From: Rhynchobatus australiae
Taxonomy: Eukaryota
NCBI GenBank assembly: GCA_034780895.1
Contig: JAUZTB010000078.1
Coordinates: 6,097,672 to 6,161,671 of the forward strand
Direction: 5' to 3'
DNA length: 64,000 bases
The translations under genes and the position numbers were made by a program. Positions within the stretch are counted from its first letter, which is position 1. Every line of letters starts with the position of its first letter. Of the stretch, positions 8,530 through 47,835 are shown one piece after another. The notes beneath the pieces were generated by a model. It saw only the letters and a list, made by a program, of their open reading frames with translations. It did not search any database and was not told where the DNA came from.

Positions 8530-8943
8530 CATAAAAAGGGTGTGAAAAGGAAAGCTGACACAACAACTCCGACAACCAATGTTCCAGTGAAGAGTCGAGA
8601 GTCTTCTCCATTAATGACTGAACCCAAACCTGCAAAGATCCCTTCCAGGAGTGGTAGACCTCCAAAGCCCACTAAGAAAGAGATTCCAGACTCCCAACAG
8701 CAGCAACATCTTGAGAAGGGTGGGGGTGGAAGTGTTGGGATTGTAGCTGGTGTTGGGGTTGTGGTTGGCAGTGGAAAAGTTTCGGAACAATTGAAGTACT
8801 GCACTGGCATTCTTAAGGAAATGTTCGCCAAGAAGCATGCAGCCTATGCCTGGCCCTTCTACAAACCTGTGGACGTAGACGCCTTGGGACTGCATGATTA
8901 TCACGACATTATAAAACACCCCATGGATCTCAGTACTATTAAA
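8530..8943 (+). CDS. brd4: BRD4 coding exon: motif A ([14 protein letters not shown]) and N-terminal half of bromodomain 2 (…[38 protein letters not shown])
   Basis: Acceptor tttatttttaag|CAT and donor AAA|gtaagc; 414 nt, phase 0-0. Contains the WPF shelf and PMDL motif; ORF 8509..9009. Confidence 0.97.
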
Positions 8944-30136: not shown

Positions 30137-31126
30137 NNNNNNNNNNNNNNNNNNNNNNNNNNNNNNNNNNNNNNNNNNNNNNNNNNNNNNNNNNNNNNNN
30201 NNNNNNNNNNNNNNNNNNNNNNNNNNNNNNNNNNNNNNNNNNNNNNNNNNNNNNNNNNNNNNNNNNNNNNNNNNNNNNNNNNNNNNNNNNNNNNNNNNNN
30301 NNNNNNNNNNNNNNNNNNNNNNNNNNNNNNNNNNNNNNNNNNNNNNNNNNNNNNNNNNNNNNNNNNNNNNNNNNNNNNNNNNNNNNNNNNNNNNNNNNNN
30401 NNNNNNNNNNNNNNNNNNNNNNNNNNNNNNNNNNNNNNNNNNNNNNNNNNNNNNNNNNNNNNNNNNNNNNNNNNNNNNNNNNNNNNNNNNNNNNNNNNNN
30501 NNNNNNNNNNNNNNNNNNNNNNNNNNNNNNNNNNNNNNNNNNNNNNNNNNNNNNNNNNNNNNNNNNNNNNNNNNNNNNNNNNNNNNNNNNNNNNNNNNNN
30601 NNNNNNNNNNNNNNNNNNNNNNNNNNNNNNNNNNNNNNNNNNNNNNNNNNNNNNNNNNNNNNNNNNNNNNNNNNNNNNNNNNNNNNNNNNNNNNNNNNNN
30701 NNNNNNNNNNNNNNNNNNNNNNNNNNNNNNNNNNNNNNNNNNNNNNNNNNNNNNNNNNNNNNNNNNNNNNNNNNNNNNNNNNNNNNNNNNNNNNNNNNNN
30801 NNNNNNNNNNNNNNNNNNNNNNNNNNNNNNNNNNNNNNNNNNNNNNNNNNNNNNNNNNNNNNNNNNNNNNNNNNNNNNNNNNNNNNNNNNNNNNNNNNNN
30901 NNNNNNNNNNNNNNNNNNNNNNNNNNNNNNNNNNNNNNNNNNNNNNNNNNNNNNNNNNNNNNNNNNNNNNNNNNNNNNNNNNNNNNNNNNNNNNNNNNNN
31001 NNNNNNNNNNNNNNNNNNNNNNNNNNNNNNNNNNNNNNNNNNNNNNNNNNNNNNNNNNNNNNNNNNNNNNNNNNNNNNNNNNNNNNNNNNNNNNNNNNNN
31101 NNNNNNNNNNNNNNNNNNNNNNNNNN
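30137..31126. other. Assembly gap hiding the 5' half and acceptor of the ET exon
   Basis: 990 N. The expected [32 protein letters not shown] segment is absent elsewhere in the window. Confidence 0.9.
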
Positions 31127-31280
31127 GTAGTTCACATCATTCAGTCCCGTGAACCCTCACTGAGAAACTCAAACCCTGATGAGATTGAAATAGACTTTGA
31201 AACATTAAAACCCTCCACATTGCGAGAGCTAGAACGATATGTTACATCATGTTTACGGAAAAAAGCGAGGAAACCTCAAG
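31127..31280 (+). CDS. brd4: BRD4 ET-domain exon, 3' part only; 5' part lies in the N gap ([51 protein letters not shown])
   Basis: Open frame begins immediately after the gap 30137-31126. Canonical ET motif [22 protein letters not shown]; donor CAAG|gtgaga, phase 1. Confidence 0.96.
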
Positions 31281-34200: not shown

Positions 34201-37200
34201 TACTTTTGAAATATTCTAGGCATACTTTACAGTTTAAACTACCGTTCCCCTCTTTTACTTGGTGCTTGTCAAATGGAACCTCTTTGTGCAGAAAAATGGG
34301 CCTCTTGTTTGTGTTAGGAACCCAGGGCCAAAATCAAACCATCCTAACTCGCAGCATATCCAAAAGTGCAGACAATAATGTTCCCTAACTCTGAATGCAC
34401 GGGGAACCCACGGGGCGATCCAAGTGCTCTTGGACCCCTAGTAAGTTATCCATGCATTCATTAAGATTATTAATGCTGTACTTGGGCAATTACGTGATGG
34501 GTTTTTGGCCTTTAAGGAGTTGACACAGTACAAATTCATTTTGCCTCATGATCTTATAATGCAATCACACAAAATAAATTGAACCCAGGTATAATTTTCT
34601 CTGCTTGTCCCTTCTGATCAAAGTGATTAACAAATACATGACCTTGGACCTTTTTATTTGAAGATTGTCACGGGTGATGCTTATATGCCATGATATAATG
34701 ATCCTCACTATTGTGGGGATAGGTGCTGTTACAAGTTTACCCATGCTGTCAGCATTGTTACTGTAACATTAACTGATCGAAACGACAAAAGAGCCTTTTA
34801 ATGCAGCAAAATGTCCCAAGACACTTAAGAGCAACGTTGGTATCCTTTTGATGGTGACACAGGCTATTATCAATGACAGTGATTGAAATTTGGTCTTTGG
34901 AGTAGATTTGTGGGACAGTTTTATGAGGAGAATTATAGGGCATGTTGGCAAGGTAACCAGTGATGAAGTGATTAGAGTAGAGGGTGTGCAAGAGGCCAGA
35001 AATGGGGGAACAGGGGGTCTTGAGATCTTGTTGAGCTGAGGGGGTGGAGCCAAGGTTGAGGACTTTAAAATGAGGTATTTGTTGCCAGGACCTGTATATA
35101 GTTCAGAGCATATGTTATGTATGATTAAAACTCATAGCAGTGAGTTCAGTTGTGCTTCTGTCAGGGGAAAATAGGAAAGAAGTATATTATGAGAGACTTC
35201 AGAGATGCAGAGGCAACTGGGTGAACTAGTGCATGATTTGCAAAAAAAGCTAGTATGCATACACCCAAAATAATGGAGAAAGCCATCACTGTCAGTGCTA
35301 GGGAGATCAGTTACAGAGGACATTGGTCAGACCACATCTGGACTACTATATGGCATTAATCTACTCTGAAAAGAAAGGATGTTAATATTGTTGGAGGTAG
35401 TTCAGAGGATTTCAGGACAAATAACTAAAATGAGGTTGGATAGGCTTTGCTTGTATGTGATAGAGCTTAAGAGTGAGAGGAAAGTTGATTGAAACCTAAG
35501 ATCTGACAGGATGGGAGAACATGTTTTTCACATAATAGATCGAAATACTGTGTTTCTGAGAGAAAACATTTCACAAAACTAACCCTTACTCAATTCAGGT
35601 GCAGTTGAACTGACTTTAGTCGAGTCTTAGCCAGAAACCACAGTGTGATGCTCCAGGTAAGCTATGACAGATGTACATCCCCAATGAATTAAATGTATGT
35701 GGGAACAGGCAACCCTAATCATAAATACAAAGAAAGATATTTGACGTTCCTGTATTAGTATGCTTATGGCTTTGCTCATTGGATTGGGCAGAATTGGTAC
35801 ATTACCACTATCCTTAAAATTAGCTCCAAACCTTTAGGATTGTGGAATTAAGATTGCTTAATTTAAACAAAATCACAAAATATTTTCTTCCACCTCCTGG
35901 TTTAAAAAAAAGTACCATGTAGTCCTTTACCAATACCTACTGTGTTAAACTGCAGTTTGAATAACAGGTAGTGGAACTCTGGGAAATTTTTCTACATCAT
36001 CAGTCCTTGAAAACTTGCTGGCTCCTTTTTTTTTGGACAGTTTCATTTTCTGTATTCCAAATGCCAAGAGCATTCCATTGTACATTAAAATGTCTTGTCC
36101 ATTAAAATGCTTTTGGAACGTAGAGCAACTTTAACCAGTTGCTTTGTAATTTGGTGCTTCCTGTACCAATGATTTGACCTTGAGATTGTGACAGATATCT
36201 GAATTTGCATGTTCTTGGTAGCTAACATCTATATGCATATATGAGGTCTAGATTTGTTCCAGATCCCAGGTTACAGCATTTTCTCTCTAATCAGTTCATG
36301 AACAGTTAAGACAGAATATGCTCTTCTGCTCACACATCTAAGATGTGATTGTATTCTTATGAAGACCATTGATAATCATATTTGTAAGATTCATGTATGA
36401 TGCTGGGGAAAAGGACTTGCTGTACAATAGTCGAATAGAAAATTTGCCTCAATGCATTTTATTGATAACTTGAGCAGTGGTTGCAAGTGAGATATAACCA
36501 ATATGTCCATGGATTACAGTAAGGACAGTGAAAAATTGTTAATTTTGGTGTAGTTATTGGTAACATGATGTGATTTTCATTGTGCTTTATGTGAATGGGT
36601 TCTTTGGCCCTAATCTGGGTGATATCTACCTTGTTTATTGGAAGATACTGTAATATCAGTTTTTTTGTGACAATGATTGTCTTTACTTTGGATATATGAT
36701 CATTGTTAAATGATCTACACTGTTACAGCATCATTGGACTTGTGAATGGGCATGCACAGGTTGGGTATTGACATCTTTGGGGCTGCTTAACTTAGAGGTC
36801 AGAACAACAGCTGGTTTTCAGAGGTACACTATTTCCTTTTTAATTTTGAATCAGATTTGACTTCTCCAGTGAAATAGATATTGAATTTGGCAAATGCTGA
36901 ATTTCAGTAGTGATGTCATGATACAAAAGTTTAAATTTTTTACATAGCAAAATCAACCTTAATTCTTAGACTTTGGAACAATGCATAGTTTCTGTTCAGT
37001 AACAAATATAGTCATTTAACACTCTCAGTATTAACAAATTGTGAGCAGGAGTAGGTCACATGAGTCTCTAAGCCTGCTCCAACATTTAATAAGATTGTGT
37101 CTGAAGTGATTGTAACCTCCTGTTTACCCATGGCAACCTTTTAGCCCCTTGNNNNNNNNNNNNNNNNNNNNNNNNNNNNNNNNNNNNNNNNNNNNNNNNN

Positions 37201-37943
37201 NNNNNNNNNNNNNNNNNNNNNNNNNNNNNNNNNNNNNNNNNNNNNNNNNNNGGCGCTGGGGGAATCATCGATGGATATTTATGGGGATGACAAAAAAATT
37301 ATGCTAGTTATGCTAACCCTGCTACTGCAGATGCCATAGAATTCTCTGGCTGTCATGGCAGCTAGTTTTTGGTTTTGAATCCCTTCAAATGGTTTGACCA
37401 TTGCTCTTTTGACATGAGTGAAAGTAGTTAAAAATTAAATTGGTCAAATTTTTTTTAAATGGGAATTTTTTTTAATCCCTCAATTCTTGAGCCTTGGGCT
37501 TTTTGCAATTAATTTCTGAAGTTGACCTCTTTGTAAGCAGTGACCAGGGATCATTCCCCTCACTCCCCTTCTCTCTGTCCTGTATTTTTGTGCAGCTCTT
37601 TACAGTAGCACAACCTGAGGTTGGAATGTGTTTCGCAATGAATTGAATCCTATATTCTATTTATTTCACTTCAATTTTTTAAAATGTGATTTAATGTTTT
37701 ATTAAGGCAATATTATCATGACCTCACTTCGTGCTTCCAAGCATTTGCTAAAGTCTCTTTAGATTATTGGCCTTCTAAGTTGCAAACAATGAATAGATCC
37801 TTTTTTCCTTTAGCTGCTTTTCCTTCCTTCAATTTGCATCTGATCCCATGTGCCAAATTAGATTAATTTTATTCACTGTGTTGTACCTGTGTAATGGTAC
37901 CAAAGAGCTTGGTCCAAATCTTGTTGTGTGATGCTGTTTGCAG

Positions 37944-38063
37944 TGAAAAAAGTCCCAGGGAAATCGAACGATGAGCTCCAGCTAGACTCGAAGAGTGAGC
38001 TGGATACCAGGTTACATGACGTTAGCGGCCAGCTGAGCTCTGGGAAGAAACCAGGCAGAAAAG
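37944..38063 (+). CDS. brd4: Post-ET coiled-coil exon of BRD2/BRD3/BRDT type (VKKVPGKSNDELQLDSKSELDTRLHDVSGQLSSGKKPGRK); probable cassette exon
   Basis: Acceptor gctgtttgcag|TG and donor AAAG|gttggt; 120 nt, phase 1-1, no stop. EL..RL.DVSGQL..KKP..K matches BRD2/3 [13 protein letters not shown](N/S)S.KKP; GC-richer than its flanks. Confidence 0.85.
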
Positions 38064-39214
38064 GTTGGTGTAGTGCAACCTTGTGAAGTAGATCCTTAGG
38101 TGAAATAGGTCGGGGCCAAGGTTAAAATTAATTTGTGCAAATATGTAATAGCTTTAATTTTNNNNNNNNNNNNNNNNNNNNNNNNNNNNNNNNNNNNNNN
38201 NNNNNNNNNNNNNNNNNNNNNNNNNNNNNNNNNNNNNNNNNNNNNNNNNNNNNNNNNNNNNGAAGAGCTTTAATTTTGTGGTGCACATACCTCTCAAACT
38301 GCAATGTAATTGGCAGAATTCTGGTTCGTGCTTGTGGAAGAGTGCGGCTTTTGGTGGCATTAGTAAATTGGCTGATTTTCATTGGTTGCATTTGGCTGCT
38401 ATTTCTCCAAGTGTTGCAGCTTTACATTGGGTCACAGTGATTTTTAAAACCATACAGTTGAGAGGTATGGTGGTAATCTCATCAGTATTTGATTTATTGG
38501 ATTGAAACAGGGTTTAATTCTGGATATATACTGCAGGTAATGATTCACACTGCAATTGTAGGTAGAGGGTAAGATGTAATTTTCTGAAATTTTGCTATGA
38601 ATAGAGATGTTTACTTTGTCCTGTGTTCTGCCTATAATGAGCAATCAATAATAATGTTGGTTTTTGTAGAAAATATTTCTTGGGAGTCAATGTAGCATCT
38701 GAAACTAACAATTCCTTAATCTTTTCTGCTAATGGAAAATTACTTGTATACAAATATTTAACTTTAAAACAGGAAACTGGTGATGCACCCGTTTTTTTAA
38801 AAAATGAGAGCATAGCCTTTAAATGTTCAGACCAGAGCAATGGGATTAACATTGTGTTTTCTCCTGGGTATCTTCCAATGTTGTACATTGAACCCAAGAA
38901 CTAATGATTTGCGGATTCGATATTAAAAGGGGATATCAAAAGCACCGATTCCAATACACCTGGCAGCCATCAGTTTGATGAAACATACTATTTTCTCTCC
39001 CCTCCCTGTTCCAGAAAACAAAAATTGGACAGTGCATTATTTCTCTTTACCAAAACAGTACAAATCTGTAATGTGCAACTCTTTATTTAACCAATGTTGG
39101 GTGCCTTGGACAGTTGAAGCATTTGGCACTTTATGCAGTGCCTCCTTATACTGCAAAATGATGCACATTGCAAGTCTGTACTTGTTTATATAACAGTGCC
39201 CTAGATTAATTCCT

Positions 39215-39870: not shown

Positions 39871-40300
39871 AGTGGTTAGCACGATGCTATTACAGCGTCA
39901 GTGACCCGGGTTCGATTCCCGCCACTGCCTGTAAGGAGTTTGTACGTTCTCCTGTGTCTGCATGGGTTTGCTCCAGGTGCTCCGATTTCCTCCCACATTC
40001 CAAAGACGTACGGGTAGGTTAATTTGGGGGTTTAAAATGGGCGATGTGGACTCGTTGGGCCGGAAGGGCCTGTTACCACGCTNNNNNNNNNNNNNNNNNN
40101 NNNNNNNNNNNNNNNNNNNNNNNNNNNNNNNNNNNNNNNNNNNNNNNNNNNNNNNNNNNNNNNNNNNNNNNNNNNNNNNNNNACATTCCAAAGACGAACG
40201 GGTAGGTTAATTTGGGGGTTTAAAATGGGCGATGTGGACTCGTTGGGCCGGAAGGGCCTGTTACCACGCTGTAAATAAAATTTTAAAAAATTTAAAATTT
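39871..40300 (+). mobile_element. Young tRNA-derived V-SINE; the 3' part is duplicated across a 100-N gap (assembly artefact)
   Basis: A box agtggttagcacg, B box ggttcgattccc, V-domain gagtttgtacgttctcc...ttcctcccacattccaaagac, tail gaagggcctgttaccacgctgtaaataaaa; CpGs are retained. Confidence 0.9.
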
Positions 40301-46812: not shown

Positions 46813-47059
46813 CTGAGAAGCATGACGTAAGCATGGATGTGGGAGGCCCTTCAAGGATGAGAAGCAGCAGCAGTTCTTNNNNNNNNNNNNNNNNNNNNNN
46901 NNNNNNNNNNNNNNNNNNNNNNNNNNNNNNNNNNNNNNNNNNNNNNNNNNNNNNNNNNNNNNNNNNNNNNNNNNNNNNGGATGAGAAGCAGCAGCTGTTC
47001 TTCTGAGTCAGACAGTAGCAGTGACTCCAGCTCCTCTGAGAGCAACGACTCTGAAACAG
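46813..47059 (+). CDS. brd4: BRD4 SEED exon (AEKHDVSMDVGGPSRMRSSS[S/C][20 protein letters not shown]); 123 nt once the artefactual gap is collapsed
   Basis: Acceptor ctctttgtacag|CT and donor ACAG|gttagc. The 24 nt on each side of the 100-N gap are duplicates (46855-46878 and 46979-47002); collapsing them gives a phase 1-1 exon of 41 codons. Confidence 0.92.
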
Positions 47060-47835
47060 GTTAGCGTCAATTCTTTCAGTAATTGAGCCTGTTGCTAGCC
47101 TGGCGCTGGCAAAGTCTGTTTCCCCTCTGCCCCACGTACTCTCTGTAAACCACCCATCGTAGTTTCCAAGCGACAACCAGTGACTTCTAAATATCACTGC
47201 AATACATACAGTTTGCCAGATTAATGGAGTTGGAGCCTTTTGCCAGTAGTTCCTTGTGTTAAAAGAACAACATGTCTGGAAGAATTTCTAGCGCTAGTCT
47301 GTTTAAGCTGCATAGAAAAAGTGCAATAATGCTGACAGTGACCATTGAAAGCCATAAAAAGAGCTTAAGTTGCACTTAAATTAGAAAGCAGCTTCAACAG
47401 AGAAAATTGTTTTGCTCTTGGAAAAAACAGGATTGTTTTTTTTTCTACCTCGTCTTTTGAAAGATCAACGCTTGACTACCAGCAAATGAAATTTGCTTCA
47501 CCTGTCTAAAAAAAAATGTATGAAGGATTTCTGGTCAGGACATGCATATGGAATGCTTTTACAAAACATGGTGTTCACCTGTGTGCAGTTCGTGTAGCAT
47601 TTCAGGTGGTTGGTGCTAACACTGTTCTGTGGTGAATGGGACAGGTTTCAAGATATTCCCCCAACTCCATGTGCACTGTGGACTCTTGCGCAGTAAGGTA
47701 CATGTGCATTTTCTAAATTTGATTATATAAACAGTAAGAGGACAGTAAAAGGAGGAGAAAAAACCTGGTGGGCTACAGATCTTTATCCTTTCGACTGTCA
47801 CAATTGGCAAAAAATTATCTACATCCTGCGTTCTT

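Follow-up and report, generated by a model that had tools for sequence, protein, structure and literature searches.

An intact but worn homologue of the BET coiled-coil exon in the ET–SEED intron of a cartilaginous-fish brd4

The intron between the ET and SEED exons of brd4 in Rhynchobatus australiae contains a stop-free, 120-nt exon that is homologous to the coiled-coil (CC) exon of BET genes (Table 1; positions are those of the window, which is the whole stretch of 64,000 nt analyzed here). The best explanation is that this is the ancestral BET CC exon, intact but worn, which is retained in the brd4 of a cartilaginous fish and is probably still spliced into some or all of the transcripts. 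In one review, the CC is described as a feature of BRD2, BRD3 and BRDT that BRD4 lacks (PMC11939847).

Table 1. Positions of the brd4 exons, splice sites and assembly gaps discussed in the text
Feature	Position in window	Strand	Description
Exon with motif A and bromodomain 2 (first half)	8530..8943	+	91% identity to whale shark BRD4
ET-domain exon, 3' part	31127..31280	+	Ends KPQ, phase 1; Pfam BET 55 bits
Assembly gap left of exon contig	37152..37251	.	No flank overlap; join without sequence support
3' splice site of CC exon	37921..37943	+	UG-rich tract, gcag; mid-rank strength (17/37)
CC-homologous exon	37944..38063	+	120 nt, phase 1-1, 40 codons, stop-free
5' splice site of CC exon	38061..38069	+	AAG/gttggt; lower-third strength (9/34), near brd2 CC donor
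Assembly gap right of exon contig	38150..38277	.	Last 12 nt before gap recur 4 nt after it
Next assembly gap	40010..40270	.	73-nt flank overlap, links to contig with SEED exon start
SEED exon	46813..47059	+	AEK start, phase 1; 100-N gap inside, duplicated flanks

The boundaries proposed in a first-pass annotation of this DNA are read directly in the sequence: the acceptor is gcag/TG and the donor is AAAG/gttggt. The ET exon ends at 31280 with KPQ G/gtgaga, and position 46813 is the first base of the SEED exon (cag/CT GAG AAG); both boundaries are in phase 1. Inclusion of the exon yields KPQ-V...RK-AEK and skipping yields KPQ-AEK, with the frame kept either way. The splice sites are canonical, the phase is symmetric and both joins are in frame. 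No Pfam family matches the exon. Two assembly gaps damage the neighboring exons: the ET exon has lost its 5' half to a 990-N gap (window 30137-31126), and a gap with duplicated flanks (window 46879-46978) splits the SEED exon. Because of these gaps, automated models of brd4 in this region will be broken.

The homology of the exon to the BET CC exon is evident from the profile match, from its identity to the CCs of brd2 and brd3, and from its length and phase. A profile of 22 CC segments taken from other proteins was run against five loci, cut into 17,010 reading-frame segments, and matched the exon with an E-value of 3.2e-13, the best non-CC match being 0.45; this rules out a chance pseudo-exon. 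In the 2.2-Gb genome, the exon peptide has two further matches, which are the brd2 CC (54% identity) and the brd3 CC (49% identity). Identity is highest to the CC of an elasmobranch-like BRDT (P0164), at 21 of 35 residues (60%), which is nearer than the brd2 CC. The hydrophobic residues L12, L20, L24, V27 and L31 are retained. Like the brd4 exon, the brd2 CC exon and a CC exon on the metagenome contig L066 are 120 nt long and in phase 1-1. The brd2 CC of this genome has a methionine, as do all the skate and ray entries listed, and the listed sharks have a leucine; by this residue the DNA probably comes from a batoid.

A metagenome scan for the CC exon gave at least one confirmed locus among the 603 stretches listed. 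The exon on L066 (L066:6554-6673) is an animal BET CC exon, and no other BET exon was found across 12.6 kb of this contig. CC sequences of the L066 type are presumably insect-like. The start of the L066 exon resembles that of the window exon more than the start of the BRD2 CC does.

The assignment of the gene to brd4, made in the first-pass annotation, holds on three counts: its position in the tree, the C-terminal PF17105 motif and the BRD4-type tail exons. Four BET loci are present in the genome, and in a BET tree they correspond to brd4 (the window), BRD2 (C81), BRD3 (C69) and BRDT (C76). The window locus clusters with the BRD4 proteins of whale shark, gar and eel (support 100/99) in this tree of 19 rows, which was rooted at the midpoint and in which the rows from this genome cover about 43% of the kept columns. 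Identity with brd2, brd3 or brdt was rejected, as those clades are filled by the other three loci. The brd4 locus encodes two bromodomains and an ET domain. Some 20 kb beyond the end of the window come tail exons of the BRD4 type together with the PF17105 motif (at G000:C78:6182133-6182198, 45 bits against a cut-off of 27); BRDT also carries such a motif.

Several other features of the locus were observed. A Gly/Val-rich insert precedes bromodomain 2 of brd4 (window 8716-8775). Whale shark, gar and eel BRD4 have Gly-rich equivalents, which the three other paralogues of this genome lack. In the SEED exon (window 46813-46878), the serine run is preceded by a GPSR-type motif, as in BRD2, BRD3 and BRDT. 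This motif has no counterpart in gar, eel and human BRD4, suggesting that the elasmobranch BRD4 region is more ancestral overall. The SEED exons of brd4 (window 47057-47064) and brdt (G000:C76 near 12930721) both end with G/GTTAG, where read-through would immediately give Gly-stop; the identical GGT TAG terminates the brd2 gene (G000:C81 near 10048629). To judge from the sequences, the stop of BRD2 appears to be the homologue of the donor through which BRD4 and BRDT enter their long tails.

The exon contig is bounded by gaps, and its placement in the brd4 locus is supported by a chain of overlaps that crosses two gaps to reach the contig with the SEED exon. The first overlap is 12 nt, is shared with the next brd4 contig and ends at the last base of the exon contig; the second is 73 nt. 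None of 4160 mismatched flank pairs, drawn from 65 gaps as a control, reached 9 nt. As the left gap lacks an overlap, the link between the exon contig and the ET exon is provided by the scaffold. The 910-bp contig might alternatively be an assembly artefact, in which the CC exon of brdt was scaffolded into brd4. The left gap without overlap is compatible with this, as is the state of brdt itself: its locus (G000:C76) lacks the ET and CC exons, its ET exon is on another scaffold (C135), its CC exon was not found in the assembly, and the 2110-N gap before its SEED tail is large enough for the exon contig. The match to the BRDT-like P0164 (60% identity, 35 residues) also fits, although this likeness would be expected from shared ancestral residues as well. 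Against such misplacement, the exon contig shares no comparable overlap with the edges of the brdt gap, where the best matches are 6 and 8 nt and internal. The brdt SEED tail of this genome is identical to P0164 at 21 of 23 residues, so that a CC with 60% identity is unlikely to be the orthologue of the P0164 CC; the true brdt CC should be far closer. Moreover, the SEED exon of P0164 follows the CC after about 27 intron codons, whereas the 98 nt that follow the exon in the brd4 contig contain no SEED start. The contig is located in the homologous intron in the correct orientation, and a 462-nt stretch has a single match in the genome. Misplacement is thus considered improbable. The brdt ET exon is on a 3.9-kb contig (G000:C135:71485355-71489239) that was scaffolded into another chromosome-scale piece than the rest of brdt (C76:12871691-12955861); this placement is itself an assembly error, which would break the annotation of brdt.

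The exon in brd4 is partly degenerate, as had been proposed. Fourteen columns of the CC are near-invariant (at least 90% invariant in 24 distinct homologous cores); 10 are kept in the brd4 exon and four are changed (E10D, E15D, K16S and E21D). At the same columns, 20 of the homologues have no change and four have one, with the proviso that 5 of the 14 columns lay within the pattern used for picking homologues, by which the degenerate tarpon BRDT was dropped. The invariant charged core of the CC module is accordingly incomplete in the brd4 exon. The number of acidic residues in the core is unchanged at six, and that of basic residues is two, compared with five to seven in ten homologues. DVSGQL is kept. 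Not all of the residues first called degenerate need be so: P5, S8 and D10 may be ancestral, because all three are present in the L066 exon and P5 and S8 in the elasmobranch-like BRDT. The structural comparison with the brd2 CC, suggested by the first-pass annotation, was carried out using AlphaFold2 without an alignment. The brd4 exon is predicted to form a helix at residues 17-32 (16 residues, mean pLDDT 75) and the brd2 CC at residues 8-30 (23 residues, pLDDT 85); as single-sequence folds of 40-mers, these helix lengths are weak evidence.

The codon positions of the exon are identical to those of brd2 at 27/31/12 of 39 sites, the corresponding values for brd2 and brd3 being 31/33/16. This pattern suggests selection at the protein level over most of the history of the exon. 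Neutral decay was simulated from brd2 DNA, with an assumed indel rate of 0.1 per substitution and with consideration of runs having the same number of changes (four). At 0.05, 0.1, 0.15 and 0.2 substitutions per site, the splice sites and the frame were kept in 27%, 11%, 4% and 2% of these runs, and the five hydrophobic positions were kept in addition in 14%, 5%, 2% and 0.6%. An intact frame, splice sites and hydrophobic positions are thus improbable under neutral decay, and to judge from the sequence, constraint on the exon is relaxed but likely not gone.

These data also bear on the idea that the exon is a dead relic, which is no longer spliced and drifts neutrally, as yet without a stop or an indel. 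Elasmobranch genomes change slowly, which would explain the absence of such lesions in a dead exon. Change in 4 of 14 conserved columns corresponds to about 0.1-0.2 neutral substitutions per site, several of the changes in the exon are third-position transversions, and no protein record holding the exon was found. At 0.1-0.2 substitutions per site, however, simulated copies keep the sites and the frame in 2-11% of cases, and the hydrophobic positions as well in 0.6-5%. At 0.3 substitutions per site, 0.3% of the simulated copies stay intact, which excludes death of the exon at the time of the shark/bony-fish split under the assumptions of the simulation. A dead relic is consequently unlikely, if less so than misplacement of the contig.

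The preferred reading, a worn exon still in use, raises the question of how the exon is spliced. Both splice sites had been called suboptimal. This is only partly right: the donor is in the lower third, near the brd2 CC donor, and the acceptor is of middle rank, above those of brd2 and brd3. Taken together, the two sites are ordinary and no weaker than those of the brd2 CC exon. Counted from the weakest, the acceptors of the brd4, brd2 and brd3 CC exons rank 17, 3 and 11 (n = 37) and the donors rank 9, 14 and 20 (n = 34), by a small home-made matrix with a few mis-snapped comparison sites. The strength of the splice sites gives no special sign of skipping. Judged from sequence, use of the exon as a cassette and its constitutive use appear almost equally probable, with a slight leaning to the former.

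Among 22 listed sequencing runs, 17 hold at least half of nine 31-mers sampled from the exon stretch (10 organism labels, 10 studies); one of these 17 may be the source of the assembly, and none of the listed runs is on record as RNA. Such sharing suggests that relatives, which may be very close kin, still carry almost the same stretch. Fourteen of the matching runs are RNA by our guess, and four of these, from one organism, hold seven of the nine words. As 90 of 121 31-mers lie wholly inside the exon, a proportion near the seven of nine, this pattern might be read as spliced RNA, but interspecific divergence would produce it as well.

A related possibility is that the exon is a regulated switch. 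An alternatively spliced module would produce a BRD4 isoform that combines working ET-CC binding with the P-TEFb-binding tail, and the substitutions in the exon would represent a change of function rather than decay. The exon is symmetric and its donor is in the lower third; its hydrophobic positions are kept, as is each of the six acidic residues, the changes being mostly E to D; and the exon stretch is common to several organism labels. These features are consistent with a switch. The changes, however, affect columns that are invariant in 24 of 24 homologues (E15, K16 and E21), the predicted helix is shortened, and the constitutive CC exon of BRD2 has equally modest splice sites. A regulated cassette in cartilaginous-fish BRD4 that alternates between a mammal-like protein and one with working ET-CC plus P-TEFb tail, the loss in teleost BRD3 being independent, is therefore doubtful, though somewhat less so than a dead relic. 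If it were true, the switch would be a living intermediate that predates the division of work between BRD2/3 (initiation, TFIID) and BRD4 (elongation, P-TEFb).

The distribution of the CC among BET proteins suggests when the exon was lost. The statement that human BRD4 joins KPQ directly to AEK is borne out by a structure (PDB 36iu chain K). The first-pass annotation had set the lack of the exon in mammals; the lack in human BRD4 stands, but the loss would extend beyond mammals to bony vertebrates, as the gar (P0038) and moray-eel (P0015) BRD4 models also have no CC segment, a placement given by three BRD4 proteins (human, gar and moray eel). These BRD4 proteins are orthologous to the window gene in the tree and share with it the AEK start of the SEED exon and the C-terminal motif; they differ in joining ET to SEED without a CC, as compared at the level of proteins. 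In teleost BRD3 (3a and 3b), 36 of 36 rows among the 120 listed likewise join ET to SEED without a CC; these rows were labeled by the analyst and represent 16 species with many isoforms (e.g., P0025, P0069, P0079 and P0098). BRD3 of sturgeon (P0149), bat (P0002) and this genome has the CC, which suggests repeated loss of the exon, with teleost BRD3 likely a second case on this sequence comparison. The CC of tarpon BRDT (P0073) is degenerate, and a CC is missing from one model of chimaera BRDT (P0055).

An ET-coiled-coil (ETCC) module of BRD2 and BRD3 has reportedly been described by Werner and colleagues in 2020. PDB 6CUI contains the ET-CC of BRD2. The brd4 exon resembles this module in its place after the ET domain, in the length and phase of the brd2 exon, in 54% identity, in the hydrophobic positions and in DVSGQL. 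It differs in residing in brd4, in the changes at E15, K16 and E21, in having two basic residues instead of five to seven, and in a predicted helix of 16 instead of 23 residues. BRDT (coelacanth P0143 and elasmobranch-like P0164) likewise has a CC, a long tail and a C-terminal motif in one gene, P0164 being the nearest peptide match, so a single gene that unites a CC with the C-terminal motif is already known. Unlike the brd4 exon, the CCs of P0143 and P0164 keep the charged core.

As for function, a recent preprint reports that the CC-holding C-terminal region of BRD2 is needed for binding of TFIID and that human BRD4 associates with P-TEFb instead of TFIID; its authors propose that the initiation role disappeared from BRD4 once the P-TEFb tail had been acquired (10.1101/2025.09.20.676678). 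The region deleted in that work includes the homologous CC, but TFIID binding was mapped to a C-terminal fragment and not to the CC alone (10.1101/2025.09.20.676678).

Searches of protein records with the 40-aa peptide against longer proteins gave 15 candidates, of which the sole match was bat BRD3, and no orthologue with the exon; the 63-aa open frame gave no candidate among short proteins. Among 50% representatives there were 34 matches, none a close orthologue, with a spurious repeat protein at the top. In a search with the bromodomain-2 exon, the only elasmobranch BRD4 among the 120 matches listed of 3154 was a truncated whale shark BRD4. Because no full-length elasmobranch BRD4 occurs among those 120, absence of the exon from protein records is weak evidence. 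A literature search listed no description of a brd4 CC exon from fish, shark or other non-mammalian species, although automated gene models may contain it. In the excerpts available, PMC13083254 and PMC11335234 mention the CC in BRD2 only, and those of PMC10789245, PMC2373290 and PMC13373324 contain nothing on a brd4 CC exon.

We propose that a single BET gene, before its duplication, had the 120-nt exon and that all four paralogues would have inherited it. In brd4, constraint on the exon may then have relaxed; the exon being symmetric, skipping would have been possible without harm. Bony vertebrates would subsequently have lost the exon, and the cartilaginous-fish lineage would keep a worn copy. 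When included, the exon is predicted to add a shorter, less basic (more acidic), amphipathic helix after the ET domain, which would putatively allow only weak binding of BRD2/3-type partners (TFIID, PAF). The worn exon thus likely represents, on the evidence of its sequence, a halfway stage in the loss of the CC by BRD4.

A brd4 with the CC exon dates this loss to after the shark/bony-fish split. It also provides a natural, part-worn CC with few changes in invariant residues, which could be tested in existing complementation and pull-down assays. The exon alters the evolutionary account of an established module and leaves the kind of system to which it belongs unchanged.
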